Source of the DNA: Candidatus Magasanikbacteria bacterium GW2011_GWC2_37_14
Lineage (GTDB): Bacteria; Patescibacteriota; Patescibacteriia; Magasanikbacterales; UBA922
DNA: 64,000 nucleotides
Direction of reading: 5' to 3'
Assembly: GCA_000990355.1 (NCBI GenBank)
Contig: LBSX01000005.1
Coordinates: forward strand, 4,584 to 68,583
Each line of letters opens with the position of its first letter. Position 1 is the stretch's first letter. This document shows, piece by piece, positions 7,875 to 57,790 of this stretch. The notes under the pieces were generated by a model. The model had not been told where the DNA came from. It saw only the letters and a program-made list of their open reading frames with translations, and did no database searches. A program made the position numbers and the translations under genes.

Positions 7875-9206
7875 ATGATCCAGCAAATTATTGATCTCCA
7901 TATCCACTCCAAATACTCCCGGGCGTGTAGTAAGAGTTTGGAATTGTCAGAAATTGCCAAGGCTTGTGCTATTCGTGGGGTAGATATTGTAGCAACAGGG
8001 GATTTTACCCATCCTAAGTGGTTTGAACATATAAAGACAAGTTTGGTGGAGGAAAATGAAGGGGTTTATAAATTGAAGGCTCCCACTCCCCCTACCCCCT
8101 CTCGGGCAGAGGGGGACAGTGAAACCCGTTTCATTATTGGTACAGAATTATCGTGCATTAAAAAACACAAAGACAAAACTCGAAGAATTCATGTGTGTGT
8201 TTTTGCTCCCAATATTGAAGTGGCAGAAAAATTTAATAACAAATTAGAAACAATGGGTTTTAATTTACGTTCTGATGGTCGGCCAATTTTAGGTTTAACA
8301 GTAAAACAGTTGTTAGAAATTATGTTAGAGACTGATGAACGAATGATTATGATTCCCGCCCATGCTTGGACGCCGTGGTTTGGTATTTTTGGTTCCAAAG
8401 GTGGCTATAATAGTTTAGAAGAAGCTTTTGAAGAATTAACGCCAAAGATTTTTGCAATTGAAACTGGTTTATCTAGTGACCCACCAATGAATTGGAGGCT
8501 TAGTAAATTGGATAAAATTGCACTAGTATCCAATTCTGATGCTCATAGTTTGGAAAAAATTGGGCGTGAAGCCAATGTTTTGGAATTTGTAGATGAAAAA
8601 GCCATTACTTATGAAAATATTTTTAACGTCATTAAGGAGAGTTGCCACGTAAAATCTGCTTCATCAGCAGATCACGTGGCTGGAAAGTTACTCTATACAA
8701 TAGAGTTCTTTCCAGAAGAAGGAAAGTATCATTATGATGGTCATGCGAATTGTAAATTTGTTTGTGCACCAGAAGAAAGTAGAAAATTGAAAAATATTTG
8801 TCCTAAGTGTAAAAAAGAATTAGTAATTGGAGTAATGAATCGCGTGACGGAGTTGGCTGACAGAACAGAAGAAGAAGCAAAAAAAATAAAACACGTTCCA
8901 TTTAAAAGTCTGGTACCCTTGCCAGAAATTATTGCTGATTGTTTTAATTGTGGAGTGAGTACCAAGAGAGTAAAAGAAGTATATAATAAGTTAATTAAAA
9001 AGTTAGGTAATGAATTTAATATTTTATTAAATATTGATACGCAAGAAATTGCGTTTACTTCAGAACCAATCATTGGTGAAGCAGTTGAGCGAGTAAGAAC
9101 TGGTAAAATTTATGTACGGCCTGGTTATGATGGCGAGTTTGGAGTAGTAAAAGTGTTTAGTGATGAGGAAAGAGTTGGCAAAAAACAAATAGGCCTTGAG
9201 TTATAA
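7875..9206 (+). CDS. PHP-domain metal-dependent phosphoesterase family protein with C-terminal Cys4 cluster
   Basis: DLHIHSKYS PHP motif, HAWTPW, CKFVC..CPKC; contains in-frame palindromic insertion at 8081-8118. Confidence 0.6.
   Translation: MIQQIIDLHIHSKYSRACSKSLELSEIAKACAIRGVDIVATGDFTHPKWFEHIKTSLVEENEGVYKLKAPTPPTPSRAEGDSETRFIIGTELSCIKKHKDKTRRIHVCVFAPNIEVAEKFNNKLETMGFNLRSDGRPILGLTVKQLLEIMLETDERMIMIPAHAWTPWFGIFGSKGGYNSLEEAFEELTPKIFAIETGLSSDPPMNWRLSKLDKIALVSNSDAHSLEKIGREANVLEFVDEKAITYENIFNVIKESCHVKSASSADHVAGKLLYTIEFFPEEGKYHYDGHANCKFVCAPEESRKLKNICPKCKKELVIGVMNRVTELADRTEEEAKKIKHVPFKSLVPLPEIIADCFNCGVSTKRVKEVYNKLIKKLGNEFNILLNIDTQEIAFTSEPIIGEAVERVRTGKIYVRPGYDGEFGVVKVFSDEERVGKKQIGLEL
8081..8118 (+). 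repeat. GC-rich palindromic mini-element (core CCCCTCTCGGGCAGAGGGG) inserted in frame in CDS
   Basis: encodes APTPPTPSRAEGD; near-identical elements in three other CDS. Confidence 0.7.
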
Positions 9207-9999: not shown

Positions 10000-11025
10000 A
10001 TGATAAGTAAAAATAAAAAAATTATTATAAAAGATTTAGATAGCAAAATTCGTTTGGATGTTTTTTTGACTGAAAAACTAAAATTAACTCGTTCTAAAAT
10101 TCAAAAATTGATTGAGCAAAAATTAATTTTGTTAAACAAAGAATTACCTAAAAAAACTGGTACCATGATTTTGAATGGTGATGAGATTGAAATTATTAAA
10201 CCAGTAATTGTTAAAAAAATTATAACCAATAAAATAGAAAAAAATTTGAAAACAGAAATTGCTAATTTGCCAATTGAAATTGTCGCCGAAACTAGTGATT
10301 ATTTGGTGTTAAATAAACCAGCTGGTATATTGGTCCATCCAACCGAAGCCGGAGAAGAAAATACATTGGTAAATTGGTTGCTAACAAAGTATCCCAAAAT
10401 AAAAAAAGTTGGTGACTCCCACTCCCCCCACACCCCCTCTCGGGCAGAGGGGAAAAACATAAGACCTGGTATTGTTCATCGTTTGGATAAAGAAGCTTCG
10501 GGATTATTGGTAATTGCCAAAACTCAGGCTATGTTTGAACATTTAAAAAAACAATTTCAAAATAGAGAGATAAATAAGGAATATTTAGTTTTGGTACATG
10601 GTACAGTACAAAAAAATTATGATCAAATTGATTTTGAAATAGATCGTGGTCATGATGGTAAAATGGTGGCTCGGCCCAAAACTGATAAATTTAAAGTAAA
10701 GAATGTAGAAAAAATTCAAGAAGGCAAAGAGGCTTTGACCGAGTTTGTAATAGAAAAGAATTATGTTCGTTATACTTTGCTTCGTGTAAAAATTTTTACT
10801 GGTCGTACCAATCAAATTCGGGTACATATGATGGCTTACAGTCACCCAGTAGTTGGTGATAAATTATATTTTAATAAAAGATTAAATAGAAAACGAGATA
10901 CAGAATTAAACAGAGTATTTTTGCATGCTGTAAAGCTTGGTTTTACTGATTTAAATGGTTATGAGCAAACTTTTACAAGTAAATTGCCCAAAGAATTGGA
11001 AAGTTTTTTAAAAGACTTAAATTAA
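10000..11025 (+). CDS. RluA/RluD-family 23S rRNA pseudouridine synthase (S4 domain + PUS)
   Basis: LDVFLTEKL...SKIQKLI S4 motif, HRLDKEASGLLVIAKT catalytic motif; track ORF start 9883 lies inside tRNA, so start set at MISKNK; in-frame insertion at 10417-10452. Confidence 0.85.
   Translation: MISKNKKIIIKDLDSKIRLDVFLTEKLKLTRSKIQKLIEQKLILLNKELPKKTGTMILNGDEIEIIKPVIVKKIITNKIEKNLKTEIANLPIEIVAETSDYLVLNKPAGILVHPTEAGEENTLVNWLLTKYPKIKKVGDSHSPHTPSRAEGKNIRPGIVHRLDKEASGLLVIAKTQAMFEHLKKQFQNREINKEYLVLVHGTVQKNYDQIDFEIDRGHDGKMVARPKTDKFKVKNVEKIQEGKEALTEFVIEKNYVRYTLLRVKIFTGRTNQIRVHMMAYSHPVVGDKLYFNKRLNRKRDTELNRVFLHAVKLGFTDLNGYEQTFTSKLPKELESFLKDLN
10417..10452 (+). repeat. GC-rich palindromic mini-element inserted in frame (encodes DSHSPHTPSRAEGK)
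   Basis: TCCCACTCCCCCCACACCCCCTCTCGGGCAGAGGGG; same family as 8081. Confidence 0.7.
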
Positions 11026-11731: not shown

Positions 11732-12166
11732 ATGAATGAAGATAATAGAACAAATTTAGCTCCTGGCATGATTATTAAAGTCCACCAGAAGATTAAAGAA
11801 ACCAATACCAAAGGTGAAGAAAAAGAACGTATTCAGGTTTTTGAAGGTATGGTAATTGCGGTAAAACATGGTAAAGAACCAGGTGCTACTGTAACCGTAA
11901 GAAAGATCTCCAATAGTGTAGGTGTAGAGAAAATTTTCCCTATTCATTCGCCAGTGGTTGAAAAAATCGAAGTAGTGCGCCAAGTAAAGGTGCGCCAGGC
12001 TCGCCCTTACTATTTGCGTGACTATAAAAAGAAATTAAAAGAAATTAAAGGTAATAAAGTAGAAAAGGTAGACAACGAAATATTAAAGAACAAAAAAGAA
12101 ATTGAACCAGTAGACATTTTGCCAGAAGTAATAGAAGAAAAAGTAGTAGAAGAAACTAAAGAATAA
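11732..12166 (+). CDS. rplS: 50S ribosomal protein L19 with C-terminal K/E-rich extension
   Basis: [12 protein letters not shown]...[29 protein letters not shown] matches L19 core. Confidence 0.9.
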
Positions 12167-16644: not shown

Positions 16645-17847
16645 ATGAATAAAACAGGCATTGTTTTAAAACCAGGTCGTGATAAAGCCATAAAAAATAA
16701 ACATCATTGGATTTTTTCCGGAGCAGTTTCATATATTTCCGAATTTAGTAATGGTGAAATTTTGCCAGTTTATAATTCTACTGGAGAATTACTAGGCCAT
16801 GCTTATTGCAACAAGAATACTTCTATTTTGGGAAGAATGATTAGTTTTGGCAATACTGATCCAGTCAAAGAATTAGAAAAAAATTTGGAAAGCGCGATTG
16901 CGATGCGTAAAAGTTTGTTTAATGAAAAAATAACTAATTGTTATCGTCTGGTTAATTCCGAGGGTGACAATATTCCGGGTTTAATTATAGATAAATATGC
17001 TGGTGTTTTGGTAATTCAAAGTGCGACAGCGGGTATTGATTTATTAAAACCACAAATTGTAGAATTTTTAGTAAAAAAATTAAAACCCGTGGCAATTTAT
17101 GAAAAATCCGATTTATCATCTCGCCGTGAAGAAGGTTTGACTATGAGCGAAGGTTTGGTATATGGTAAAGAAGTAAAGAATGTAGAAGTAATTGAAAATG
17201 GTTTAAAGTTTGTAGTGGATTTGGTGAATAGCCAAAAAACTGGTTTTTTTCTTGATCAGCGGGAAATGCGGGTTTGGGCAGGCGAATTAGCCAAAAACAA
17301 ATCTGTGCTTAATTGTTTTGCCTATACTGGAGGTTTTTCTTTGTATGCCGTTCAAGGCGGGGCTAAACAGGTAGACACAGTAGATATTTCTAGTGAAGCA
17401 ATACAGAGAGCCGAGGAAAATTTTAAATTAAATGGTTTTCTCCCGCCTCCCCCTACCCCCTCCTCGGGCATGAGGGGGCAATTTGGATTTATTACGGCTG
17501 ACATTTTTGAATTTTTACGAGCTGAAAAATTAAATTATGATTTAATTATTTTGGATCCGCCAGCTTTTGCTAAAAAGAAAACCGATGTTATCAAAGCTTG
17601 TCGAGGCTACAAAGATATTAATCGCTTGGCACTACAAAAAATGCCAGCTGGTAGTATTTTAATCACTTCTTCTTGTTCTTATCATGTAGACGAAAAACTC
17701 TTCCAAACTGTAGTTTTTCAAGCTGCGGTAGAAGCAAACAGAAAGGTCCGGATAATTGGTCGTCATCATTTAGCACCCGACCACCCAATAAATATCTTTC
17801 ATCCCGAGGGGGAATATTTAAAAAGTTTGGTTTTGTACATAGAGTAA
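16645..17847 (+). CDS. rlmI: 23S rRNA (cytosine-C5)-methyltransferase RlmI-like (PUA + SAM MTase)
   Basis: LNCFAYTGGFS motif I, ILDPPAFAKKK motif IV; in-frame insertion at 17441-17478. Confidence 0.8.
   Translation: MNKTGIVLKPGRDKAIKNKHHWIFSGAVSYISEFSNGEILPVYNSTGELLGHAYCNKNTSILGRMISFGNTDPVKELEKNLESAIAMRKSLFNEKITNCYRLVNSEGDNIPGLIIDKYAGVLVIQSATAGIDLLKPQIVEFLVKKLKPVAIYEKSDLSSRREEGLTMSEGLVYGKEVKNVEVIENGLKFVVDLVNSQKTGFFLDQREMRVWAGELAKNKSVLNCFAYTGGFSLYAVQGGAKQVDTVDISSEAIQRAEENFKLNGFLPPPPTPSSGMRGQFGFITADIFEFLRAEKLNYDLIILDPPAFAKKKTDVIKACRGYKDINRLALQKMPAGSILITSSCSYHVDEKLFQTVVFQAAVEANRKVRIIGRHHLAPDHPINIFHPEGEYLKSLVLYIE
17441..17478 (+). repeat. GC-rich palindromic mini-element inserted in frame (encodes LPPPPTPSSGMRGQ)
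   Basis: TCCCGCCTCCCCCTACCCCCTCCTCGGGCATGAGGGGG. Confidence 0.7.
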
Positions 17848-22316: not shown

Positions 22317-23075
22317 ATGCCCATAATGCGCTTGCAAAAATTTATTGCGGACCAAGGAATTTGTTCTCGGCGAAAGGCCGAAGAACTTATTTTGGCTAAA
22401 AAAGTAAAAGTAAATGGAGTAGTAGCCGAAATTGGTTTAAAAATTGACAGTGAGAAAGATAAGGTGGAAGTGGTAAATTTCAATTCTCCCACCACCCCGG
22501 CTTTCAGCCACCCCTCCTCCGGCAGGAGGGGACACGTGTACATTGCCTTGAACAAACCAGTGGGTTTTATTTGTTCGGCAAGTAATGAACAGGGTAAAAC
22601 TGTTTTGGAACTTCTAACAAAAGAAAATTATTTTGGTAAAGAAAAATTAGAAATTAAAGATCGGGTTTATCCCGTTGGCAGGCTAGACAAAGATTCAGAA
22701 GGTTTAGTATTGCTTACGAATGATGGTGAACTTACCAATAAATTAATTCATCCACGTTATCAACATGAAAAAGAATACGAAGTAGGGTTAAACAAACCAT
22801 TGGGAAAACCTGAGGTAAAGATTTTAGAAAATAGTATGGAAATTGGCCCTGGAGAACGTGTTTGGGGAATAAAAATAAAAGATCTTGTTTGCAAAAATGA
22901 TCAAACTATAGCTACAGTGATTTTGCACGAGGGCAAGAATCGTCAAATTAGACGGATGTTTGGTAAATTGGGCTATAAAGTGATGTTTTTACGTCGGGTG
23001 CGTATTGGTAAATTAAAATTAGGCACTTTGCCTTTGGGTAAATGGAAAATGATTGGCAAAATTCAAATAATTTAA
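22317..23075 (+). CDS. RsuA/RluB-family rRNA pseudouridine synthase (S4 domain)
   Basis: RLQKFIADQGICSRRKAEELI S4 motif, GRLDKDSEGLVLLTNDG catalytic motif; in-frame insertion 22487-22531. Confidence 0.85.
   Translation: MPIMRLQKFIADQGICSRRKAEELILAKKVKVNGVVAEIGLKIDSEKDKVEVVNFNSPTTPAFSHPSSGRRGHVYIALNKPVGFICSASNEQGKTVLELLTKENYFGKEKLEIKDRVYPVGRLDKDSEGLVLLTNDGELTNKLIHPRYQHEKEYEVGLNKPLGKPEVKILENSMEIGPGERVWGIKIKDLVCKNDQTIATVILHEGKNRQIRRMFGKLGYKVMFLRRVRIGKLKLGTLPLGKWKMIGKIQII
22487..22531 (+). repeat. GC-rich palindromic mini-element inserted in frame (encodes SPTTPAFSHPSSGRRGH)
   Basis: CCCCTCCTCCGGCAGGAGGGG palindrome core. Confidence 0.7.
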
Positions 23076-28996: not shown

Positions 28997-30110
28997 TTAG
29001 TCGCATTCACCAAATGGGAATGCATTAAGAAATCCCCCTTCATTAAGTTGAGGCACCTCAACTTTTGGGTAGATTTCGTTCACACGACGCAACACTTTGA
29101 TAGTTTTTTCCAAGGTGGTTCCACTCAAACCAAATGGATTGATAATTTCTCGTAACCAAGATTCCAGCATTGGTTGCCGATTAAATTTCTCACTGACCAT
29201 CAATGATGAATCAGTAAAAGAAATTCTATCAGCAATTGAAACCACTTTTTCTACCTGGCGATCGTAACAGACAAAAGCAAATTGGCTCCCTCTTTTTTTC
29301 ATAACCTGACGAATAAGATCATCGAAATTGCTTTCAGTAGTTGGTCCGATTTTTATATTAACACCGAAGACATCATAGAGATAAATTACTTCGGCTAATA
29401 CTAGAATTGAGTACCAGCGTTGGTATTCGGTGTCGTAACGATTATAGTTGGCATAATTTTTGATAGAGATTATTTCCCCATCATTTGCTTCGCTACAGTA
29501 TTGAATAGCTTCTTGCAAAGAGAGTTGATATCTTTCACTAAGCCACAAATCATTAGCATCGATGACAATTGGTTTATTCTTTTGTGGAAAAAGTGACAAA
29601 CTTATGGCTTCCAGATATCGTCCTCTAGTTTTTGAACAAGCCAAGACGGTGTCACTCGTTTGGAACCAGCTAGTCAATCGTAGACAAACTTCCTTTGCTG
29701 TTTGTTTGGTAAATTTAGTGGCAGGAACTTCACGATTTTGATTAACTACCGCATAGGGTGAGGCATTCAAGACAAGACCGCGCCAGCCAGTCCTTTTTAT
29801 GTAGCCAAAGAAGTCCAAGAGAGCAAGGTTTTCCCCTAACTGAGCCACATAAGGGTTGTAACTAACGCCTTTGTAGGGTAATAGTTGAACCTTACTGTCC
29901 AGTAGGTCAAGAAAATCACTCACATAGGGAATCACAATTTGTTGGATTTCCAAATCTCTTTGCAAAACTAAACCTAAAAGTTCAAGTGCATTATCTATTT
30001 TGCGACAGGTTTGTTGCCAACGTCCAAATGAGATTTTTCCTTGAATAGCATTAGCCACTCTGAGTCCTGGTCGGAGAATCACCGACATTTTTTGGTAGGT
30101 TGTGTCCATG
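28997..30110 (-). CDS. hypothetical protein, 371 aa, no recognised family; elevated GC
   Basis: long ORF with RBS AGGAGA 7 nt upstream of ATG; GC about 45-50% versus about 35% backbone. Confidence 0.5.
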
Positions 30111-30147
30111 TGTTTGTCTCCTCTTAAGTTGTAAAAGAACATCGCAA

Positions 30148-30178
30148 ACAAAAAATCACCGACTTGGTGATTTTTTGT
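30148..30178 (-). promoter_or_regulatory. terminator-like hairpin in 5' leader (possible attenuator) of the 371-aa gene
   Basis: AAAAAATCACC-GACTT-GGTGATTTTTT flanked by A/T runs, 38 nt upstream of start codon; candidate promoter TTGACA-17-TAATGT about 200 nt upstream. Confidence 0.35.
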
Positions 30179-30349
30179 CCAAAATAGCAAAACAACAAAG
30201 TTAGTTGGCTACTTTGGACATATTTTGTGGTGGTTTAATTTTTGAGTGGTTTTTTGTTTCATATTCTTGTATCACTGTATTACTACATTAACACAAGAAA
30301 AAATTGTTGTCAAATAGGGGTGTGGATAAAAAGGTTGTTTTTTCACGTG

Positions 30350-30377
30350 GTAGAGACGCAAAATTTTGCGTCTCTAC
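30350..30377. repeat. REP: 28-bp perfect palindrome GTAGAGACGCAAAATTTTGCGTCTCTAC (copy 1, just downstream of RAYT stop)
   Basis: perfect palindrome with 5' GTAG; 3 copies in window. Confidence 0.8.
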
Positions 30378-30389
30378 AGTGAAACGTTA

Positions 30390-30956
30390 TTATACCAACA
30401 ATCCCTCAGGATTATTTCTATCACGGTCCCACATTGAGGGATTATTGAAAATATATTGTTGAATATTGTGTAGCGAAATTTCGTCACGAATGATGTGGTC
30501 GTAAAATCGTGCTTGCCAGATGAATGAGACGTTGTTTGTTGTAGCCCATTTTGATACACCAATTTTAAATCCGCGAATAATTGATGATAAATTTTTGGAT
30601 TGTGGGCCAAATTTATTGTGGTAAAGTTTGTCGTTGTCGTGTAGAGACGCAAAATTTTGCGTCTCTACAATTGGCGGATTGTTGTTAATTATAATAATTC
30701 CATGTACATGATTTGGCATTATCACAAATTCGTCTAATGTTACAAACGGAAAATGTTTTGGTATTTCCAACCAATATTTTGTGGCCATTTTTCCAATATC
30801 ATTCAAAACAATTTCATCACCAACTATTTCACCAAAATAACAGAATTTATTTTTGGTGCAAATAGTTATAAAATAATAACCCGTTTGGCTATAGTCATAT
30901 CCAGCCAAACGGGTTGAAGGTATTAAAAATTTATTTCTAAATAAATTGTCGGTCAT
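30390..30956 (-). CDS. REP-associated tyrosine transposase (RAYT; IS200/IS605 Y1 HuH family)
   Basis: RLAGYDYSQTGYYFITICTK N-motif, HVHGII HuH motif, WQARFYDHIIRDE...YIFNNP C-terminal Tyr motif; contains REP copy in frame. Confidence 0.8.
   Translation of the reverse strand: MTDNLFRNKFLIPSTRLAGYDYSQTGYYFITICTKNKFCYFGEIVGDEIVLNDIGKMATKYWLEIPKHFPFVTLDEFVIMPNHVHGIIIINNNPPIVETQNFASLHDNDKLYHNKFGPQSKNLSSIIRGFKIGVSKWATTNNVSFIWQARFYDHIIRDEISLHNIQQYIFNNPSMWDRDRNNPEGLLV
30641..30668. repeat. REP copy 2, in frame inside RAYT CDS (encodes VETQNFASL)
   Basis: identical 28-bp palindrome. Confidence 0.8.
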
Positions 30957-31234
30957 TTTCTCAAATTTTCCAAAGCTTTTTTGTAGCCATCTTCGCCATG
31001 TTCTAGCCAGTGAGCGATGCGGGTAATGGTTGTGGTAGAGAGTTTAGTAATCTTGGCAACTTCGCGATAAGTCTTGCCTTGGTTTAAAAGTAATACGGCT
31101 TGCCAACGATTAGACATTTCTTCCAATTCATCCAAGGTACAAAGATCGCGCAAAAAATTGGCAATGTCGTGTGGCGTTTTTAACACCGAAAAAGCTTTGG
31201 CTAGGTTTTTAAGTTTTTCATTTTTCCAATTCAT
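30953..31234 (-). CDS. TrpR-like (YerC/YecD family) HTH protein
   Basis: FLRDLCTLDELEEMSNRWQAVLLLNQGKTYREVAKITKLSTTTITR matches Trp-repressor-like fold; 4-nt overlap with RAYT gene. Confidence 0.7.
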   Translation of the reverse strand: MNWKNEKLKNLAKAFSVLKTPHDIANFLRDLCTLDELEEMSNRWQAVLLLNQGKTYREVAKITKLSTTTITRIAHWLEHGEDGYKKALENLRK

Positions 31235-32522
31235 AATTTTTGGTAATTAAAAGTAAAGCTGGTAAAAGCCAAAAAAGTATTGCCAGGTCGTTTTTGATAT
31301 ATGGAGAGTCGACCAAGCCCATCACGAGAATAATTATCATTGAAGAGATAAGGTAAATTGTTACATTGTTACATTGTTGCACTGTTTCACTGTTATCTGT
31401 TATCTGATATTTGATATTTGACATTACTGTTTTGAAAAACCAAAATATAATTAAAAGAAAACTTACTAATCCCAATAATCCCAAATTTACATACATTGTG
31501 AGGAATATATTATGTGGATGATGAAAAATTTCAATATTTTCACCATTTACTTGGCTGTGGTAAGGAACAATTTTTTGTGAATAACTAGTCAAGCCTGCAC
31601 CAGCCAAAGGATGATCTTTTAAAAAGTTTAGGGTGTCTTGCCACATTACTAAGCGGATTTGTCCGGAGCGATCGCCAAAAAATATTTCTTGTTTAATCTT
31701 TGAGAGGCTTGCAAGGCTGACAAGGCTTACGATGCCAACAATGCCAATGATAATAATTGGCCAACGAGTTTTTTTGTAGACTAGTAATAAAAAACCACTT
31801 CCAGCTAGAACCCCAAGCAAGGGGCCAGTGCCTTTGGAAAAAATTATTGCCGACAGATAGCAGATAGCAGATAACAGATAGCTAGTGATTAGTAACCAAT
31901 TTTTTTGTTTTAATTTTTGCCATTCTTGAATAATAAAATATATAATAAAAGGAACAATCGGCGCCAAAAATAGCCCTACTCCATTGGGAAAGCCATACCA
32001 AGCTGTAACACGAAAAGTATTGTGGTTTTGCCAAAAAGCATAGGGCACTTGCCAACCAGTAAAGTGTTGGTAAATAGAGAGAAGGGCTGTAACTAATCCA
32101 GAAACAATTAAGGCGTAAATTATTTTGTGGGGAATTTTTTTAAAAGTAGTAATTAAAATAATAAAAATTAAAATTGGCTCGACATAAAATGCTTTCCATT
32201 CTCCCAAGGCAGCTCGAAGATTGCTAGAAGTAAAAATTGAAATTGTGGCAGAAATTAGAAATAAAGTAATTCCTGCAAATAAAATCTTATTTTGGTTTAT
32301 GTTATCTGCTATTTGATATTTGCTTTTTGATTTAATTAACCAAACTATAAGAATAATCCAAAACATTATTTCTAATAATGTGGTTGGTAATGATCCTAAA
32401 TTTAAGCGAATTAAGTAAGTAGGTAATAATAAAAAAAATAAAAATAAGCCATTGGTAAAATTTTTCCAAGTAAGGAAAGTAAATAATATTGAATAAACAA
32501 TTAATACTGAGTAAAATAACAT
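31218..32522 (-). CDS. O-antigen ligase/polymerase-like (Wzy_C) polytopic membrane protein
   Basis: 10+ TM helices, periplasmic loop pattern; adjacent to Wzx-like flippase. Confidence 0.6.
   Translation of the reverse strand: MLFYSVLIVYSILFTFLTWKNFTNGLFLFFLLLPTYLIRLNLGSLPTTLLEIMFWIILIVWLIKSKSKYQIADNINQNKILFAGITLFLISATISIFTSSNLRAALGEWKAFYVEPILIFIILITTFKKIPHKIIYALIVSGLVTALLSIYQHFTGWQVPYAFWQNHNTFRVTAWYGFPNGVGLFLAPIVPFIIYFIIQEWQKLKQKNWLLITSYLLSAICYLSAIIFSKGTGPLLGVLAGSGFLLLVYKKTRWPIIIIGIVGIVSLVSLASLSKIKQEIFFGDRSGQIRLVMWQDTLNFLKDHPLAGAGLTSYSQKIVPYHSQVNGENIEIFHHPHNIFLTMYVNLGLLGLVSFLLIIFWFFKTVMSNIKYQITDNSETVQQCNNVTIYLISSMIIILVMGLVDSPYIKNDLAILFWLLPALLLITKNYELEK
31358..31421. repeat. cascade of tandem 8-mer/7-mer repeats (TTACATTG x2, TTGCACTG, TTTCACTG, TTATCTG x2, ATATTTG x2) inside CDS
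   Basis: counted directly; 60 bp total so in frame. Confidence 0.75.
31854..31882. repeat. heptanucleotide tandem repeat CAGATAG x4 (one imperfect) inside CDS
   Basis: CAGATAGCAGATAGCAGATAACAGATAG; reverse complement is the CTATCTG/TTATCTG unit of the other two repeat sites. Confidence 0.75.
32299..32327. repeat. heptamer series GTTATCTG-CTATTTG-ATATTTG-CTTTTTG inside CDS
   Basis: same xTATxTG heptamer family as 31358-31421. Confidence 0.65.
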
Positions 32523-32524
32523 AA

Positions 32525-33976
32525 TTATTTTTGTTTGATTGCAAGAATTTCCTTTAGTGTTTCTTGAGAAATTGCTTTGGTGACTAGTAATACTAGGCCG
32601 TAAACCAAAACACCAATTATAACCAACAAAATTACATTAAGTTTTATTAAATAATTTAAAGCAAAACCCATTAACACTCCAGCTAATAAAATTTTTCCAA
32701 AAGTTAAAGTTTGAATTTTTTCTTTGGTGTAATGTTTTATAACTATTAACAATAATATTCCAGCATAAAATTCGGAAAAAACGGTCATCCAAGCGGCACC
32801 GTACATGCCAAATTTGGGAATAAAATACAAATATCCTGCCAAAGTAAGCACCGCATCGCTAACATAAATCCAGATAGTTTGTTTTTGTTTGTTAATAGCT
32901 ACAGCAGTATGCCCAAAGATGGATCCTAAAAATACCCCAAATACCGCTAGAGCTAGTATTTTTAAAGGAGCACCGGCATTGTATTCTGGTGCTACCAGAT
33001 TCATTATTTTGTCTGCCAAAATTATTGTGCCAATAGTTAAGGGCACAGCAAAAAGCATCATGCCATCAAAGGCTTGCTGATAAAATTTGCGGAATTCTGT
33101 TTTTAAACTTCTTGACCAGTAATAAGATAAAAGTGGTAACATTACTCCCATAAGCATCATGGCCGTTTGTGCCAAAATATCAATTACGCGGTAAGCTGCC
33201 CCGTAAATACCCACCTCTTGTTGGCTTTTAAATAAGGAAAGTAACACTGTGTCTCCACGTAAATAGACAACATTAAAGATAATGGAAATAGCCACTGGCC
33301 ACATTTTTTTGATGATTGATTTCCAAATGTTCCAATCAAAAGCCGGGCTAATAGCCGTAAATTTTCTAGCCGAAAACCACATGCAAATGGTGTAGATTAA
33401 ACTATTTAAAACTACCACCCACATTACAGTTAAAAAGCTGGCTTGATTTTTAATACAAAGCCACAGGCCAATAGTAAAAATAATTCGGCCAATATTTTCA
33501 CCAATCGCTGATAAATGCATTTGTAATTTATTTTGGTAAAGGCCAATAAATACTTGGTTCATGGCCACACTTAAAAAAGTGAGTGTGGAGATGACAATAG
33601 CAATTTTTACTTGTGGTGGGTAAGGAAAAAACAAAGCTAAAAGTGGTGCTAATCCTAAAAAAATAATCGCACTAGTTAATCTAAAACCAATTAGATTTCT
33701 AAATAATTTGTTTTTATCATGTTCGGGCTCGCTAAGCATTTGAGCAGTAACGGGAATTAAACCAAAATCTATTAAAATTCCTATAAATTGCAAAAAAGAC
33801 ATGGTGGTAATGTACCAGCCAAATTTTTCTGGGCCTAAATAGCGTGTCATTAATCCTAGACCCAAAAGACCCAAGGCAGTGGAAGTTATTTTGCCAATGA
33901 TTTGTACAGAAGTATTTTTTACAATTGCACGAGTAGTAGACATATTATATTGTTGATTATGTGGATATCTTATCAT
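32525..33976 (-). CDS. polysaccharide flippase (Wzx/MOP superfamily)
   Basis: 483 aa, 12-14 TM, typical Wzx-like N-terminus. Confidence 0.75.
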   Translation of the reverse strand: MIRYPHNQQYNMSTTRAIVKNTSVQIIGKITSTALGLLGLGLMTRYLGPEKFGWYITTMSFLQFIGILIDFGLIPVTAQMLSEPEHDKNKLFRNLIGFRLTSAIIFLGLAPLLALFFPYPPQVKIAIVISTLTFLSVAMNQVFIGLYQNKLQMHLSAIGENIGRIIFTIGLWLCIKNQASFLTVMWVVVLNSLIYTICMWFSARKFTAISPAFDWNIWKSIIKKMWPVAISIIFNVVYLRGDTVLLSLFKSQQEVGIYGAAYRVIDILAQTAMMLMGVMLPLLSYYWSRSLKTEFRKFYQQAFDGMMLFAVPLTIGTIILADKIMNLVAPEYNAGAPLKILALAVFGVFLGSIFGHTAVAINKQKQTIWIYVSDAVLTLAGYLYFIPKFGMYGAAWMTVFSEFYAGILLLIVIKHYTKEKIQTLTFGKILLAGVLMGFALNYLIKLNVILLVIIGVLVYGLVLLVTKAISQETLKEILAIKQK

Positions 33977-34039
33977 TTTTTGGCTTAGGTATCAACTATT
34001 TTTTGGATAGTATTTTTTGTGCTATAATACTCTATACCT

Positions 34040-35854
34040 ATGAAAAAAATATTCTTTTTAAGCTTAATTTTATCTTTATTTACAATTGGCTCAGTTTTGG
34101 CAGCCGAGCCCACAGTAAAAGTCAAGGATAACGCTTATAGCGCTAAATTTGTTTCACAAAACGAGGCTGACCCGATTGTTATTGAAGCTGGGGCAACTAA
34201 GAATATTGTAATTAAATTTAAAAATGTTGGTTCAATAAATTGGGATGGTTCTAAAAGTCATTTTATCTCGGCTTATACAATGGAACCACGAGAAAGAAAA
34301 TCAGTATTTTTTACTTCGAATTGGCTAAGTAGTAATCAAACTGGGAAAATTGGTGGAGTGGTTAAGCCCGGGCAGACCGGTGAATTAAGTATTAATTTAA
34401 AAGCTCCAGAGAAAATTGGTGAATATATAGAAAAATTTTATTTGGCGGCCGAGAATTATTCTTGGGTACAGAATGGTTATTTTTTTCTAAAAATTAAAGT
34501 TGTGCCAGCTAAAATTTTGGTTAAAAAGGATTCCGAAGCAGTTGTAACAACCACTCCTAGTAATTCGGCTACTGGTTATGCAATTAATAAACAAATTTGG
34601 ACTAAAAAAACTGCTAGTGGAGTAGGTGGGGAGGTAATAAAAGTGGTAATGGCTTGGCAAAATAAAGGTAAAAATACTTGGGCAAAATATCAGCTTACTG
34701 GTTCGTCAAATATTTATGATAGTTCGTGGGCAAATAAAGATACAATATTAAGTGAGAATCAAGAAGTGCTTGCAGAAAATTTTTTGAGAAAAGAATTTTA
34801 TTTTAAATTACCTAACAAACAAGGTGAGTACGTGGCAGAGTTTGTTTTAAATATTGATGAAGGAAAAATTAAAGAAACAATGTTGGTGCCACTTACTGTT
34901 ACTGCTGATGGGACAGAAGTACAGACTGGTGAAATAGAAAATTCGGTAATTAATAATTCAGGAAATCAAGTAATAAATAGTTTGCGTTTGGGGGAAGAAC
35001 CTAGAATGAGAGTTGGTTTGGTTGCTCCTGAAAGTAATTTTATTCAATTTCGTTCTTATGAAGATGATTACAAAGTTTTGAGTGGGGGAGAAGAAAAGGG
35101 AATTTTGCCAACAAGAAAATTTGCGGTGATTAAATATGAGGATGGTAAATATAATTTTAAAGGTGGCGATTTGGAATTTATTTCTACCAATTATATTCGT
35201 TTGGAACCGGTGAATAACCCTAGAGCAGTTTTTTCGGTGCCAAATTTAATAAGAACGGCAAAATGGGTCGGTCCAGGGGTTGATTTTGACACTTATCGTG
35301 GGGCAATGGAGTATCGCCGAGGTGAAGTTGATAAAAAATTATATGTGGTAAATGATTTGCTCTTGGAAGATTATGTACGAGGTATGGCCGAAAACAGTCT
35401 GTCGGCTTCACAAGAATTTTTGAAGGCTAATTTAATTGCTGCCCGCACGTATGCTTATGTTAGCCGTGGTAAGTATCCTTTTTTTGATGTAGTAGGCAAT
35501 ACTTATGATCAGTTATATCTAGGTGTTAATGCCGAAAAGATTTTAACCAATGTGCAAGAGGCAACCACAGCCAGCCAAGGAATGATGGTAACTTATGATG
35601 GCGAAGTAGTAGTAACACCGTATTTTGGCAATAGTAGTGGTACAACCAAGAGTTGGAAAAGTGCTTGGGGCGGGAGTAATAAACCTTGGCTAGTGCCAGT
35701 AATCTGCGAATATGACAAGGGTAAACGAATGAATGGTCATGGTGTGGGTATGAGTCAACTAGATGCTTATAATCGTGCTAAAACCGAAGGTATAAATTTT
35801 GTGGAATTATTAAAACATTATTATACTGGTGTAGAAATAGAAAAACTTTATTAA
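34040..35854 (+). CDS. secreted protein with C-terminal SpoIID/LytB domain
   Basis: signal peptide; C-terminal ANLIAARTYA...YDQLY...VTPYFGNSSGTTKSW...WLVPVICEYD matches SpoIID/LytB amidase-enhancer domain. Confidence 0.7.
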   Translation: MKKIFFLSLILSLFTIGSVLAAEPTVKVKDNAYSAKFVSQNEADPIVIEAGATKNIVIKFKNVGSINWDGSKSHFISAYTMEPRERKSVFFTSNWLSSNQTGKIGGVVKPGQTGELSINLKAPEKIGEYIEKFYLAAENYSWVQNGYFFLKIKVVPAKILVKKDSEAVVTTTPSNSATGYAINKQIWTKKTASGVGGEVIKVVMAWQNKGKNTWAKYQLTGSSNIYDSSWANKDTILSENQEVLAENFLRKEFYFKLPNKQGEYVAEFVLNIDEGKIKETMLVPLTVTADGTEVQTGEIENSVINNSGNQVINSLRLGEEPRMRVGLVAPESNFIQFRSYEDDYKVLSGGEEKGILPTRKFAVIKYEDGKYNFKGGDLEFISTNYIRLEPVNNPRAVFSVPNLIRTAKWVGPGVDFDTYRGAMEYRRGEVDKKLYVVNDLLLEDYVRGMAENSLSASQEFLKANLIAARTYAYVSRGKYPFFDVVGNTYDQLYLGVNAEKILTNVQEATTASQGMMVTYDGEVVVTPYFGNSSGTTKSWKSAWGGSNKPWLVPVICEYDKGKRMNGHGVGMSQLDAYNRAKTEGINFVELLKHYYTGVEIEKLY

Positions 35855-35856
35855 AT

Positions 35857-35887
35857 AAAAAATCCTGATTAAAATCAGGATTTTTTA
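35857..35887. terminator. bidirectional terminator between convergent genes
   Basis: AAAAATCCTGATT-AAA-ATCAGGATTTTTT. Confidence 0.6.
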
Positions 35888-37101
35888 AATCTATAAATTT
35901 CTCGACCCAGATGTTGATTTGGTCGATGGTAGAGTAGAGACGCAAAATTTTGCGTCTCTACTCTAAATGGCATAATTTCAAAACCAATTTTTTTCAAATC
36001 TTTTTCCCAATTTATCGCTAACCAATCATTACCAATTTTAAATTTAGGGATAGCAATTACTATTACACCTTGTGGTTCCAGAATTTTGTAAAATTCTTGG
36101 CAAGCTTTTAAATAAAGACTTTTTAATTCAGTTAATTGTTTTTCTAATTGGTTTTTGTTTTCACGACCAGTTAAGGGTTTGCCCAGATAAGTCTCAGTAA
36201 CAATTAAAGTAACAGAATTGTTTTTTATTTTTTTAGTTAATTGAGTGGCGTCACTAATAATAAATTGGCAACCAATATTTTTAAGATTATATTTTTCTTT
36301 TAACCAAAGGAAATTTTTTTCACTGTCAACAACGGCTTTTTCCGAAATGTCAGCAGCAATTAAATTATTAAAATTCATGAGAGTGGCTTCATTTAATATT
36401 GTACCCGAGCCACAAAATGGGTCCAAGAGAATTTTGTTTTTAATCACCCCGGCGCCCTCGGCAACTCCCCCCGCCTGCCTTGACGGCATGTCGGGCAGGC
36501 CTGCCCCCTCTTGGTAAAAGGGGGATAAAGCGAGATTAATCATTATCTTGGCAAGCTTGGGCGGTAGCATGCCAGACAAGTCATCACTGTCTGGTCTTTG
36601 GTAGTCACGTTCAGCCATTTCTTCAAATGGCTGTAGAGCGGTCGTAACAAAAATTTGCTTATTGATTACTGTTAAATCCGATTTTTTCTCTACTAATTTG
36701 TTGTAAAGAATAGTAGCGGTATTTTTTGGCTCAATGTAGCGTACAGAATAACCGTTGGTTTTTAAAGCTTTTTTAAGTTCCAAAGCTAGTCTTTGATCAT
36801 TTAAAGAATATTCAATTTTACCAGTAGGGCAATTAGTTATTAAGTATTCTTGTAGGTGAGTTAACAACCCCCCTTCGCCCCCCTTTATTAAGGGGGGAAT
36901 TTCGGTAGCAATTTTTATAGTGCCACCCAGCTGTTTGATTAATTTTGCTGAATCTAGTTTTTTGTTGGTTTCAATTAATAAATATTGGTTGGAATTTTGT
37001 TTTAGGGTTTTAATATTTTTAAGTTTTAATGACGAAAAAACCGCCTGGATTTCGGCGGTGGAAATAAGAGGTTGGTGCCCTAATTGAAAAAGGAAATTCA
37101 T
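35875..37101 (-). CDS. UPF0020/THUMP-type RNA (guanine-N2) methyltransferase-like protein
   Basis: LDPFCGSGTILNEA SAM motif I; carries three in-frame repeat insertions (36447-36527, 36868-36897, REP at 35934-35961). Confidence 0.6.
   Translation of the reverse strand: MNFLFQLGHQPLISTAEIQAVFSSLKLKNIKTLKQNSNQYLLIETNKKLDSAKLIKQLGGTIKIATEIPPLIKGGEGGLLTHLQEYLITNCPTGKIEYSLNDQRLALELKKALKTNGYSVRYIEPKNTATILYNKLVEKKSDLTVINKQIFVTTALQPFEEMAERDYQRPDSDDLSGMLPPKLAKIMINLALSPFYQEGAGLPDMPSRQAGGVAEGAGVIKNKILLDPFCGSGTILNEATLMNFNNLIAADISEKAVVDSEKNFLWLKEKYNLKNIGCQFIISDATQLTKKIKNNSVTLIVTETYLGKPLTGRENKNQLEKQLTELKSLYLKACQEFYKILEPQGVIVIAIPKFKIGNDWLAINWEKDLKKIGFEIMPFRVETQNFASLLYHRPNQHLGREIYRFKKS
35934..35961. repeat. 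REP copy 3, forms in-frame 3' end of methyltransferase CDS (VETQNFASL...)
   Basis: identical 28-bp palindrome, extended palindrome TAGAGTAGAGACGC..GCGTCTCTACTCTA. Confidence 0.8.
36447..36527. repeat. GC-rich composite hairpin element, in frame in CDS (encodes ...QEGAGLPDMPSRQAGGVAEGAG...)
   Basis: about 47 bp (GGCCTGCCCGACATGCCGTCAAGGCAGGCGGGGGGAGTTGCCGAGG) shared in reverse orientation with 48451-48500. Confidence 0.7.
36868..36897. repeat. GC-rich hairpin CCCCCCTTTATTAAGGGGGG in frame in CDS (encodes IKGGEGGLL)
   Basis: perfect stem of 6-7 G:C pairs inside AT-rich coding sequence. Confidence 0.55.
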
Positions 37102-37463
37102 AATGATTTTTCGGTAGAGGAGGAAATATTATTGAAAGGATCATTAAAATTAGTTGAGGTTGTTGTTTGAATTTTTTCTTGCCAAATTTTTTCTACCTTT
37201 TCAAATTTTGTAAAATCAATTACTTCTAATGAAGAGAGCCCGCTTTTGGCAATAATTATTTCTTCGGCTTGGCCAATAGTAAGAAAAATATTTTGATAAA
37301 TAAATAAACACCCTAAAATTGTGGCTAAGCCCAAAAGAGTGAAAACCGAAATATTTATTAAGCGTAATTTTAAAAATTGTTGGTATTCTGGTGAATGATA
37401 AGTTTTTTCTTGTTGGTGTTTGGATTGTAATTTATTTAGTAGCCACATAAATAATAGCATCAA
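37098..37463 (-). CDS. small membrane protein of pilus operon (hypothetical)
   Basis: single TM, overlaps pilO end. Confidence 0.3.
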   Translation of the reverse strand: MMLLFMWLLNKLQSKHQQEKTYHSPEYQQFLKLRLINISVFTLLGLATILGCLFIYQNIFLTIGQAEEIIIAKSGLSSLEVIDFTKFEKVEKIWQEKIQTTTSTNFNDPFNNISSSTEKSL

Positions 37464-42689: not shown

Positions 42690-43013
42690 ATGGACGATCT
42701 CAAGAAATTCACCCTGGATGCTTCCACGTCGGAAGCGCTCGCGCAGTCGCTCGAGGCTCTCAACAATTTCTTGCTCGGACAGAGAGTCACCCGGCGACAC
42801 TCGGTCGCCCAGGCAGGCTGGCTCTTCAAGATCCTCTTGGAGTACAGGGACAGCCCCAGCGCCAACGGGCACCCCCAACTGGCTATTGCCCGGACACTGG
42901 AAGAAGCCCAGAAACACCGGGGGCTGGGGAAGTCGGTGGATCTCTATCTCCACCAGGCCACCCCCGCCAGCGAGGTCATGGAGTTCTACTTCGTCTGGCA
43001 CATCGTCCGCTAG
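42690..43013 (+). CDS. hypothetical 107-aa protein on a high-GC (about 60%) islet
   Basis: GC3-rich codon usage consistent with real coding in a high-GC donor; candidate TTGACA-17-TAAAAA promoter in adjacent AT-rich DNA. Confidence 0.4.
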   Translation: MDDLKKFTLDASTSEALAQSLEALNNFLLGQRVTRRHSVAQAGWLFKILLEYRDSPSANGHPQLAIARTLEEAQKHRGLGKSVDLYLHQATPASEVMEFYFVWHIVR

Positions 43014-43201
43014 GAGGACCACCATGGTTGCTCGTTCGCCGCCGTTCTTTCACCAAGGGGGAAGCCCCCGACTGCACGATACCGGAGGAACAGTCGGGAA
43101 CAGTCGAAAGATCATCTAGAAATAGGTGGTTTTTTGTTTTTATCTTACATTGACAATTAGGTAAAATTGTGATAAAATAATATTTCAGTTATTTATAAAA
43201 T

Positions 43202-48336: not shown

Positions 48337-48565
48337 CCCCCTACAAGGGGAGGATTACGAAATGTGTTTGTGTGCGCGTGAACGAGTGATTGAACGTCGT
48401 CGCTGTCCCCCTCTTTCCCAACCTGCCTGCCGGTAGGCAGGGAGGGGGTAGGCCTGCCCGACATGCCGTCAAGGCAGGCGGGGGGAGTTTGCCGAGGCTT
48501 GCACAAACTCCGGCAACTCCACCGTCCGCCCTGGGCGGGCACCTCCTCTTGGTAAGAGGAGGATT
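48336..48565. repeat. array of GC-rich hairpin modules (includes CTCCCCCTACAAGGGGAGGATTACGAA and the GGCCTGCCCGACATGCCGTCAAGGCAGGCGGGG module)
   Basis: modules shared with 36447-36527 (reverse orientation) and 57763-57790. Confidence 0.7.
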
Positions 48566-48600
48566 AAAAAACACTCCGCTAATTAGCAGAGTGTTTTATA
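48566..48600 (-). terminator. hairpin plus T-run, candidate terminator for minus-strand lipoprotein gene
   Basis: AAAACACTCCGC-TAATTA-GCAGAGTGTTTTAT. Confidence 0.35.
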
Positions 48601-48720
48601 TTAACCCTCGGTTCTCCACAACACACTTATCTAAATATAAATGTATTCTGGAGATCGGAACCGAGGGTTCAGTGCCGATCATCCTTGGGGGGTGGTCGGC
48701 CGGGAGTGGCCTGGTGGGGT

Positions 48721-49101
48721 TCAACGCCCGCAGTTGAAGAGCTTGTGACTGCAGTTGGGGGTGGGGTCGCAGACATCACCACTACCGTCCTTGTCGACGT
48801 CGGTCTGGTCCGAGTTTGGTTTCTCGGGGCAGTTGTCGCAGACGTCGCCCACACCGTCCTTGTCGAAGTCGCGTTGGTCGTGGTTGAAGGTCCGCACCAA
48901 TGGGCAGTTGTCGATGCGGTCGGGGATGTTGTCCCCATCCACGTCGGAGTTGCGTTCGGCTTCGGCGGCCGACTGCTTCTGTCCGGCCTGGTAGTCTTCC
49001 CAGGCCTTCTCTCTGTCGGACGCTGGCCCACGCATCATGAGGACACAGCCTGAGAGATTTAGCACCATCGCCCACAGGGCGATAAGGATCATGCGGTTCA
49101 T
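48721..49101 (-). CDS. lipoprotein with thrombospondin type-3 (calcium-binding) repeats, on high-GC islet
   Basis: lipobox LNLSGC, three DxDxDGxxDxxDNC TSP3 repeats; GC about 60%, GC3-rich codons. Confidence 0.6.
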
Positions 49102-56883: not shown

Positions 56884-57525
56884 CTACCGGAAGAGTACGC
56901 ACCGCGGGGGCACGATCAGGCTGGCGGGGTTGACACCGTCCCAGCTGATCAGTCCCTGGAGCACCATGTTTGTCATGTGCGACTGCCACGCCCGTTCGAC
57001 TTCGTTGACGCGCTTGGCCAAGGAGTCGGGGGTGTCGTCATCGCGGATCAAGACCGGGTAGTGGAAGAAGACCGGTCCTCGGTCGAATTCTTCGGTGACG
57101 AAGTGCATGCAGACCGCGCTGGCGGTCAGCTCGCCTTGGTGGAAGGTGGCCATCACGGCTTCGTGCACGTGGTGGCCGTACATGCCCGGACCGCCGTACT
57201 TGTACAACGGACCGGGGTGGATGTTGATGGTCTTCTTGGGGTCGAGACCCCTGACCAACTTCAGCCAGCCGGACAGCGCGACGAGGTCGGGCTGGAAGGC
57301 GTCGACGAGAAGCTGATATTGGTCTACCGACCAGGGTGCGGGCATGTGAACGAATTTGACGCCCAATTTTTCGGCGCGTCGTTCTACACCACCACCTCGC
57401 ACGTTGGAAACTACGGCCACGATGTCCGCCTGGAGAACTCCGGTGCGGGAATTCTCCACGAGTTCTTGGAAGCCAGAGCCTCCACCCTCCCTGGAACCCG
57501 AAGCGAATACGAGAATCCTTTTCAT
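56884..57525 (-). CDS. PurN-like formyltransferase (stand-alone formyl_trans_N domain, 213 aa) on high-GC islet
   Basis: MKRILVFASGS N-terminus, NIHPGPLYKYGG and HFVTEEFDRGPV motifs of GAR formyltransferase family; GC about 60%; start set at MKRIL (track ORF starts upstream). Confidence 0.7.
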   Translation of the reverse strand: MKRILVFASGSREGGGSGFQELVENSRTGVLQADIVAVVSNVRGGGVERRAEKLGVKFVHMPAPWSVDQYQLLVDAFQPDLVALSGWLKLVRGLDPKKTINIHPGPLYKYGGPGMYGHHVHEAVMATFHQGELTASAVCMHFVTEEFDRGPVFFHYPVLIRDDDTPDSLAKRVNEVERAWQSHMTNMVLQGLISWDGVNPASLIVPPRCVLFR

Positions 57526-57626
57526 GTCTGAGCCTTTCTGGTTGTTGTTCACCACTCCCAAAAATATTTTGTAAATAACTAAACTATTGGTTAGCTTAGC
57601 GCTAAATATGGGAATTGTCAATGGTA

Positions 57627-57790
57627 TTCCCCCTTAGAAAAGGGGGAATAAGGGGGTTGTTGGTAAACCCTCCCCTTGTAGGGGAGGTACCCCGAGTATA
57701 CGGGGTGGTGGGGTTCGTAGTTCTAACATGAACCCCCACCCTCCGACTGCGACGTCGGAGGACTCCCCCTACGAGGGGGAGGATTACGAA
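57627..57790. repeat. array of six consecutive GC-rich hairpins (TTCCCCCTTAGAAAAGGGGGAA, CCCTCCCCTTGTAGGGGAGG, CCCCGAGTATACGGGG, GGTGGGGGTTCG..GAACCCCCACC, CTCCGACTGCGACGTCGGAG, CTCCCCCTACGAGGGGGAGGATTACGAA)
   Basis: last module nearly identical to 48336-48362; CCCCGAG..CGGGG module matches 12646-12664. Confidence 0.7.

Follow-up and report, generated by a model that had tools for sequence, protein, structure and literature searches.

What is a repetitive extragenic palindromic (REP) sequence doing in frame inside the gene of the very transposase that is thought to act on it? The question is raised by a 64,000-nt stretch of DNA from Candidatus Magasanikbacteria bacterium GW2011_GWC2_37_14 (Patescibacteria; contig LBSX01000005.1), here called the window. 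In it, the gene for a REP-associated tyrosine transposase (RAYT) carries a copy of a short palindrome between its HuH motif and its catalytic tyrosine, and a methyltransferase gene carries another. A sequence-only reading of the window had described this arrangement, considered it unusual and suggested that it might mark a decaying gene. Our analysis gives a different answer. The RAYT and its REP very probably form a REPtron of TnpA_REP subclass 2.4, or RAYT group 4, of which this arrangement is a known hallmark; this confidence covers the identity of the parts and the hallmark, apart from the reason why the intragenic copy persists. The REPtron consists of a single-copy HUH/Y1 enzyme and a cognate 28-30-nt 'double-foot' REP (GTAG...CTAC). 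Across lineages it is the DNA palindrome that is conserved and not the encoded peptide VETQNFASL, which is a by-product. The arrangement itself was already known; new here are a member from Patescibacteria, the conservation of DNA and not of peptide, and an intragenic copy that is often the sole local one.

The palindrome is perfect over 28 nt (GTAGAGACGCAAAATTTTGCGTCTCTAC) and occurs in three identical copies, at positions 30350-30377 (copy 1), 30641-30668 (copy 2) and 35934-35961 (copy 3) of the window, whereas 100 dinucleotide-preserving shuffles give a chance expectation of 0. It shares with classical REPs the palindromic stem-loop, the GTAG tetranucleotide at the foot and the association with a RAYT, and all three copies have the double foot (5' GT[AG]G, 3' C[TC]AC) in the form GTAG...CTAC; the palindrome had thus been named correctly as a REP. 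As single-stranded DNA it folds into a 13-bp hairpin of -14.7 kcal/mol (z = -7.1 against shuffles). Copy 1 is extragenic and lies 12 nt 3' of the RAYT stop codon. Copy 2 is in frame in the RAYT gene, where it encodes V97-L105, and together with its T/A flanks forms a 30-nt perfect palindrome (30640-30669). Copy 3 is in frame in the methyltransferase gene, where it encodes V381-L389, and here the perfect palindrome reaches 36 nt (35930-35965). The coordinates, the frames and the shared peptide VETQNFASL of the two intragenic copies are exactly as the sequence-only reading had given them. Degenerate copies were sought across the 64-kb window, and none was found besides the three exact ones. A REP half-site with one mismatch lies at position 46547, and the sequence GTAGAGAAAATTTTCCCTAT at 11924-11943 resembles a REP minus its inner stem (ACGC/GCGT), a doubtful case that is either a decayed copy or chance. 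We also considered copy 1 as an intrinsic terminator of the RAYT gene and rejected it, as no T-run follows it and no terminator-like site is present. A scan of positions 29900-37200 against Rfam gave sub-threshold chance matches only.

The RAYT gene (30390-30956, minus strand) is intact, encodes 188 aa and is the single RAYT gene found in the window. The protein matches the NCBIfam family REP_Tyr_transpos ('REP-associated tyrosine transposase') with E = 9e-15 and Pfam Y1_Tnp weakly, in both cases under the curated cutoff because the linker splits the conserved core. The expected motifs are all present, namely N82-H83-V84-H85 (HuH, NH[IFV]H type), W147-Q148 and Y168-I-F-N-N-P173 (YIxNNP type), and H83, H85, W147, Q148, Y168, N172 and P173 are invariant in an alignment of 39 sequences, the RAYT and 38 homologs. 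A 39-homolog profile searched against the PDB has 4ER8, E. coli TnpA_REP bound to a REP hairpin, as its sole match (E = 7.6e-6). Likewise, 4ER8 is the top Foldseek match (E = 5e-7) of an AlphaFold2 model of the RAYT, followed by the IS608, ISDra2 and IS200 transposases, and the modelled protein has the HUH/Y1 (IS200-like) fold. These matches bear out the naming of this open reading frame (ORF) as a RAYT. The model has a predicted local distance difference test score (pLDDT) of 81.8. In it the HuH strand (E83-90) and the next helix (H123-140) are joined by a loop of low confidence (residues 91-120, pLDDT 51-60) that contains the REP peptide V97-L105, which thus lies, as had been claimed, between H83/H85 and Y168. 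Profile scores under the curated cutoffs are what one might expect of a decaying pseudogene, but here they follow from the split core; the ORF is uninterrupted, every residue that is invariant in the family is present, and there are 6,384 RAYT homologs at E <= 0.001.

The description of TnpA_REP subclass 2.4 in Quentin et al. 2018 (PMC6006769, BMC Genomics 19:475) fits this gene closely. As set out there, proteins of the subclass are about 194 aa long and bear the motifs NH[IFV]H, WQ and YIxNNP, their REPs are of the 'double foot' kind (5' GT[AG]G ... C[TC]AC 3'), and in-frame REPs between HuH and Tyr are reported as the hallmark; the subclass corresponds to RAYT group 4 of Bertels et al. 2017. 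The window RAYT has NHVH, WQ and YIFNNP, a length of 188 aa (about 190), no C-terminal extension, a double-foot REP, and a variable insertion between β3 (HuH) and αC that carries an in-frame REP, here V97-L105. The patchy distribution over many phyla is shared as well. Since an in-frame REP in the RAYT was published in 2018 as typical of the subfamily, it is no sign of damage or decay. The locus differs in its host, as Patescibacteria, or the Candidate Phyla Radiation (CPR), are not among the phyla named for the subclass in that description, and in having one flanking REP and a very low copy number in 64 kb. The flanking REP is single because the upstream side of the RAYT gene is taken up by an overlapping TrpR-like gene. 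According to Bertels et al. 2017, group 4 RAYTs occur in 17 classes with low-copy flanking 16-mers (about 14 copies). In the literature searched, Quentin et al. 2018 is the sole description found of REPs in frame within RAYT genes; we found no paper on VETQNFASL, RDAKFCVS or the exact 28-mer, and nothing relevant on RAYTs in Patescibacteria or CPR.

The best-studied relative for comparison is the E. coli system of TnpA_REP and REPs in bacterial interspersed mosaic elements (BIMEs) (4ER8; Ton-Hoang 2012, Messing 2012; subclass 2.2, RAYT group 2). It shares with the window locus the HUH/Y1 fold, a GTAG-footed hairpin as substrate and a single-copy gene with adjoining REPs. As published, E. coli REPs differ in that they form imperfect, bulged palindromes, reach a high copy number (hundreds), are strictly extragenic and are grouped in BIMEs, and the E. 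coli enzyme differs in having the motifs DHLH and WE and a gene without an internal REP. REPINs (Bertels & Rainey 2011) are likewise non-autonomous elements associated with a RAYT, but the unit in the window is one perfect 28-30-nt palindrome whose flanks are random beyond the T/A.

How regular the in-frame REP is among relatives can be seen in a survey of 80 homologous RAYT loci from one-genome-per-species contigs, with the genes extracted by a hidden Markov model, which with the window gene makes 81 genes from ~15 phyla. The taxa include Gammaproteobacteria, Peribacteria, Bacteroidota, Ignavibacteria, Cyanobacteria, Planctomycetes, Chloroflexi and Spirochaetes. Counting as strict any double-foot palindrome with at least 12 of 14 pairs, the HuH-to-αC linkers (7.1 kb of DNA) contain 45 in 43/81 genes, and the 1.21 Mb outside the RAYT genes contain 49, of which 26 are within 300 nt of a RAYT. 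This corresponds to 6.3 per kb in the linkers versus 0.04 per kb outside the genes, a ~156-fold enrichment. Judged by eye, ~70/81 linkers hold a REP or a recognisable remnant of one. An in-frame REP in a transposase of this kind is therefore far from unusual. In the alignment of 38 homologs (Patescibacteria, Nitrospirae, Zixibacteria, Latescibacteria, Flavobacteriaceae) VETQNFASL stands at the same site just after the HuH strand, E98, Q100, N101, A103 and L105 are at least 90% conserved across several phyla, and some members hold 2-4 copies. The sequence-only reading had treated these residues as an insertion alien to the orthologs and had said beforehand that orthologs bearing them natively would speak against this; the 38 homologs do bear them.

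Conservation of these five positions, together with a strong predominance of one reading frame, could mean that VETQNFASL is a functional protein motif and the palindrome incidental. The DNA all but rules this out. We compared codon use in 11 genes with ~50-60% protein identity that encode ETQN[FLI]ASL. Within the REP, pairs of genes with the same residue share the identical codon in 435/445 cases (98%); in 56 other conserved columns of the same genes the figure is 1198/2642 (45%), so that synonymous variation is free elsewhere. The REP codons ACG, GCG, TCT and GAG are each fixed in 11/11 genes. Between lineages the palindrome varies (...GACGC AAAATTTT GCGTC..., ...GACGTTGCATGCAACGTC..., GTAGGGGCGAAAAATTTTTCGCCCCTAC, GTAGGGACACGCCATGGCGTGTCCCTAC), and it does so on both arms: among 31 distinct 28-mers, two-sided changes occur in 7/12 stem pairs (72 cells), with a covariation score of 0.54 versus 0.16 for shuffled data. 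One RAYT homolog (P0005, contig L201) has a variant REP, GTAGAGGCGCAAAATTTTGCGCCTCTAC, with a compensatory A>G/T>C pair that reads VEAQNFAPL, a T>A and an S>P change occurring together. Palindromes of the same architecture encode the unrelated peptides VGAKNFSPL, VETLHATSL and VGTRHGVSL in other lineages. Of the palindromes in the survey, 41 are read in frame 0 (V-E/G-...), 6 in frame +1 (RDAKFCVST type) and 0 in the frame that contains TAG, and the same DNA is thus read as RDAKFCVST in some members. Finally, the segment is predicted to be disordered. Two further features of P0005 may be recorded here: at L201 9900-9960 its RAYT gene lies directly downstream of the apparent 3' end of a tRNA gene (GGTTCGAGTCCGG...), and its variant REP is the sole copy in 19.5 kb.

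The exact 28-mer is a dispersed element. Among the metagenome matches listed there are at least 132 occurrences on at least 120 contigs (L081-L200), of which 16 are in RAYT ORFs, 6 beside a RAYT and 110 elsewhere. Many of these copies lie inside long ORFs, in either open frame, for example in an ORF of 1036 aa (L153) and, as two copies, in one of 560 aa (L120). Roughly half have a T at -1 and an A at +1, and the flanks are otherwise random. With these T/A flanks the unit is often 30 nt long, that is 10 codons, and insertions are therefore frame-neutral.

Copy 3 in the window provides an example of such a dispersed REP in an unrelated gene. The gene (35875-37101, minus strand) encodes an S-adenosylmethionine-dependent UPF0020 / Trm11-like (TIGR01177-like) methyltransferase of 408 aa with a native C-terminus. 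The protein matches Pfam PF01170 (UPF0020) with E = 2.8e-9 and 37.4 bits, above the cutoff of 22.3, and TIGR01177 with E = 1e-16, with TIGR01177 and Trm14 scores that are far below the equivalog cutoffs. There are 120 close orthologs in Patescibacteria, some of which are named 'tRNA G10 N-methylase Trm11' by the Joint Genome Institute (JGI). It had been proposed that the REP supplies about the last 20 codons of this gene. The REP accounts for residues 381-389 and is followed by 19 native residues: the last 20 residues of the protein, LLYHRPNQHLGREIYRFKKS, are conserved in the 120 orthologs, with a C-terminal motif LLYHRPxQHLGREI in which L389, Y391, R393, Q396, R400 and I402 are invariant among 23 aligned orthologs. 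In 72/120 orthologs, L389 stands 20 aa from the stop, the same as in the window gene. The loop P378-L389 is 10 aa long in the window gene versus 6-7 aa in 98/120 orthologs, and as judged from the alignment the REP replaces most of this loop, with a net gain of 3-4 aa. Copy 3 belongs with the ordinary dispersed REPs and came to lie in a variable loop at the surface, ahead of the conserved C-terminal strand.

The methyltransferase gene also retains its native stop and terminator. A hairpin with a perfect 15-bp stem (TAAAAAATCCTGATT/AATCAGGATTTTTTA; 35856-35887) with A/T runs on both sides lies between the methyltransferase gene, whose stop it overlaps, and a convergent SpoIID-like gene. The hairpin resembles a bidirectional terminator and is consistent with a native 3' end of the gene downstream of copy 3. 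An ORF artificially extended through an extragenic REP, combined with a RAYT decaying into a pseudogene, was also considered. The RAYT scores under the cutoffs are the point in its favour; the conserved C-terminus and the terminator-like hairpin at the stop, like the intact RAYT ORF, refute this explanation.

REP-like peptides recur in orthologous methyltransferases. Differing ones occupy the same loop as copy 3 in two orthologs (VETRLISSL in P0123, VQTHLGASL in P0125), and a second loop carries REP-like peptides in three others (P0130, P0154, P0180); VETHLGAS, VETRHCLVST and VQTSHGAPL are further peptides of this kind. The two loops that bear them in Patescibacteria are the same as the loops with inserts in the window gene, and the differing peptides in the same places therefore point to permissive loops that have been hit repeatedly. 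Copy 3 resembles the intragenic GTAG/CGTC REPs described in Di Nocera et al. 2013 (BMC Genomics 14:522) and the Rickettsia palindromic elements (RPEs). These are short palindromic repeats in frame in housekeeping genes, where they add peptide to a loop or close to a terminus and leave the gene functional. The methyltransferase insert differs from them in being a single 28-36-nt unit that largely takes the place of a 6-7-aa loop, for a net +3-4 aa.

One further insert and one candidate insert are seen in the methyltransferase gene. The first is an unrelated 39-nt short repeat, GGCCTGCCCGACATGCCGTCAAGGCAGGCGGGGGGAGTT, at 36463-36501 (minus strand), in frame, with an exact twin at 48451-48489 (plus strand). 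It lies within a 33-aa G+C-rich insert, SPFYQEGAGLPDMPSRQAGGVAEGAGV, that the 23 aligned orthologs do not have. This repeat is outside the REP system and shows the same tolerance of in-frame inserts. The other is a small hairpin, CCCCCCTTAATAAAGGGGGG, at ~36878-36897 (minus strand), which codes for PPLIKGG in a region of variable length among orthologs and may be a third kind of in-frame insert.

Why, then, does the RAYT gene keep a REP in its linker? One explanation is that the copy is a neutral passenger: the RAYT acts preferentially in cis, and REPs repeatedly enter a permissive disordered linker and then decay, without having a function. This is essentially how Quentin et al. 2018 (PMC6006769) interpret the arrangement. 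The linker does have low pLDDT and a length that ranges from 8 to 82 aa among homologs, and in many homologs it contains REPs that are degenerate, repeated in 2-4 tandem copies or arranged as arrays of half-REPs. Tandem half-REP arrays are found in four loci (L028, L049, L060, L080; for example VETRHMNVDTQYMNIDTRHMNVETRH... from a Nostocaceae gene) and suggest replication slippage at the hairpin. Five members have a REP-free, clean 10-aa linker (L017, L026, L047, L052, L064), and in two of these (L052, L064) a REP is found on the upstream side of the HuH motif. The same REP is also in frame in many unrelated ORFs, including the two loops of the orthologous methyltransferases.

Other observations are harder to reconcile with a passenger. 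In 27 loci a strict intragenic REP comes with 5 kb or more of sequence to either side. With up to 4 mismatches allowed, 12/27 have a flanking REP within 300 nt of the RAYT, and in 13/27 the intragenic REP has no further copy, and thus no donor, within ~10 kb. The 156-fold enrichment over surrounding DNA, and a perfect palindrome with identical codons across genes that are otherwise saturated at synonymous sites, also speak against it, and a 41:6 frame bias is unexpected for random independent insertions unless one peptide is better tolerated. Taken together, we give the neutral passenger rather less than an even chance.

A second explanation would be an autoregulatory site, in which the RAYT would bind or nick its own hairpin, in the mRNA or in DNA made single-stranded during replication or transcription, and so limit its expression; the sequence-only reading had likewise raised attenuation or regulation of RAYT activity. 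The stability of the hairpin (z = -7) and its conservation at the DNA level are compatible with this, and RAYTs, which are single-copy and apparently domesticated (Bertels et al. 2017), might favour tight control. However, no promoter or terminator signal accompanies the hairpin and it has no Rfam match, a 13-bp hairpin in the middle of an ORF is a weak barrier to the ribosome, and REP-free members exist. We consider autoregulation unlikely.

We tentatively put forward selection on the DNA of the intragenic REP, against neutral recurrent insertion, and give it slightly less than an even chance. By analogy with E. coli TnpA_REP and the IS200/IS605 TnpA enzymes, the RAYT would bind the hairpin that the REP forms in single-stranded DNA, together with the GTAG foot, and would then cut and rejoin it, scattering copies around the genome. 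The intragenic copy is the normal state of the subfamily, housed in the disordered linker that leads from the HuH strand to the helix after it. The protein tolerates it because the palindrome has a stop in just one of its three frames and, with the frequent T/A flanks, measures 30 nt, or 10 codons. Most likely the palindrome is kept constant since its sequence must stay recognisable to the RAYT, and the in-gene REP, which would always travel with the gene, may act as a resident or 'master' copy. The idea of a 'master' copy fits the spread of group 4 over 17 classes with few flanking repeats. A stronger version, in which group 4 RAYT genes have the palindrome built in under selection, as a recognition hairpin carried in the coding sequence, is rather less likely than not.

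Several points weigh against this interpretation and against parts of the evidence for it. Many linkers hold decayed or tandem half-REPs, a pattern equally compatible with selection and with turnover through repeated insertion and slippage. The binding and cleavage of REPs by subclass 2.4 RAYTs are carried over by analogy from E. coli TnpA_REP. In the covariation set, the 98.9% of paired positions is true by construction because the set was selected for palindromy, and the two-sided changes alone are informative. The genes in the codon test were picked by their peptide. The description of the intragenic REP as the sole copy holds for a span of about 10 kb. Alignment with homologs, which the sequence-only reading had recommended to define insertion points, gave a shared site for the RAYT; in the methyltransferase it delimited the point to the loop P378-L389 and no further, the nearest orthologs being ~50-57% identical. 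That loop is just 3-4 aa longer than usual, and copy 3 is therefore not a clean 28-30-nt insertion. Classical REPs are extragenic and have a high copy number, typically >100 per genome. The window shows just 3 copies in 64 kb and no degenerate ones, with two of the three in coding sequences, and many of the metagenomic copies are in long ORFs; as far as the window shows, the element thus does not behave like a classical high-copy extragenic REP.

Directly upstream of the RAYT gene is the TrpR-like helix-turn-helix gene (30953-31234, minus strand; Pfam Trp_repressor, E = 1.4e-21), which overlaps the RAYT start by 4 nt (ATGA), an arrangement that suggests co-translation. As a conserved partner of the RAYT this gene was rejected, as tblastn found no homolog of it in the 80 other RAYT loci. 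Elsewhere in the window there is a family of G+C-rich hairpin repeats, CCCCTC-TCGGGCA-GAGGGG after C-rich runs, at 8096-8114, 10434-10452 and 17457-17477, with similar sequence at 22485-22543, against a background of 36% G+C; the pattern has 3 matches versus 0 expected. Markedly G+C-rich blocks at 42720-43090, 48416-49035 and 56884-57786 could be foreign or otherwise unusual genes.

For annotation, these results mean that peptides of the VETQNFASL and RDAKFCVST types, whether in proteins of Patescibacteria or in those of many other phyla, are REPs in translation and not motifs, and that a RAYT split by a REP should not be called a pseudogene despite Pfam and NCBIfam scores under the cutoffs. 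For the host, they imply that essential-looking genes in reduced CPR genomes can accommodate short palindromic inserts of several kinds. Subclass 2.4 is the only RAYT group with enzyme and substrate in one ORF. A hairpin that is indeed selected and built into these genes would account for the fixed DNA across phyla, and also for an intragenic copy that often has no other nearby. Gene and substrate would then be one indivisible unit, which could seed a new REP population after horizontal transfer or regulate itself.

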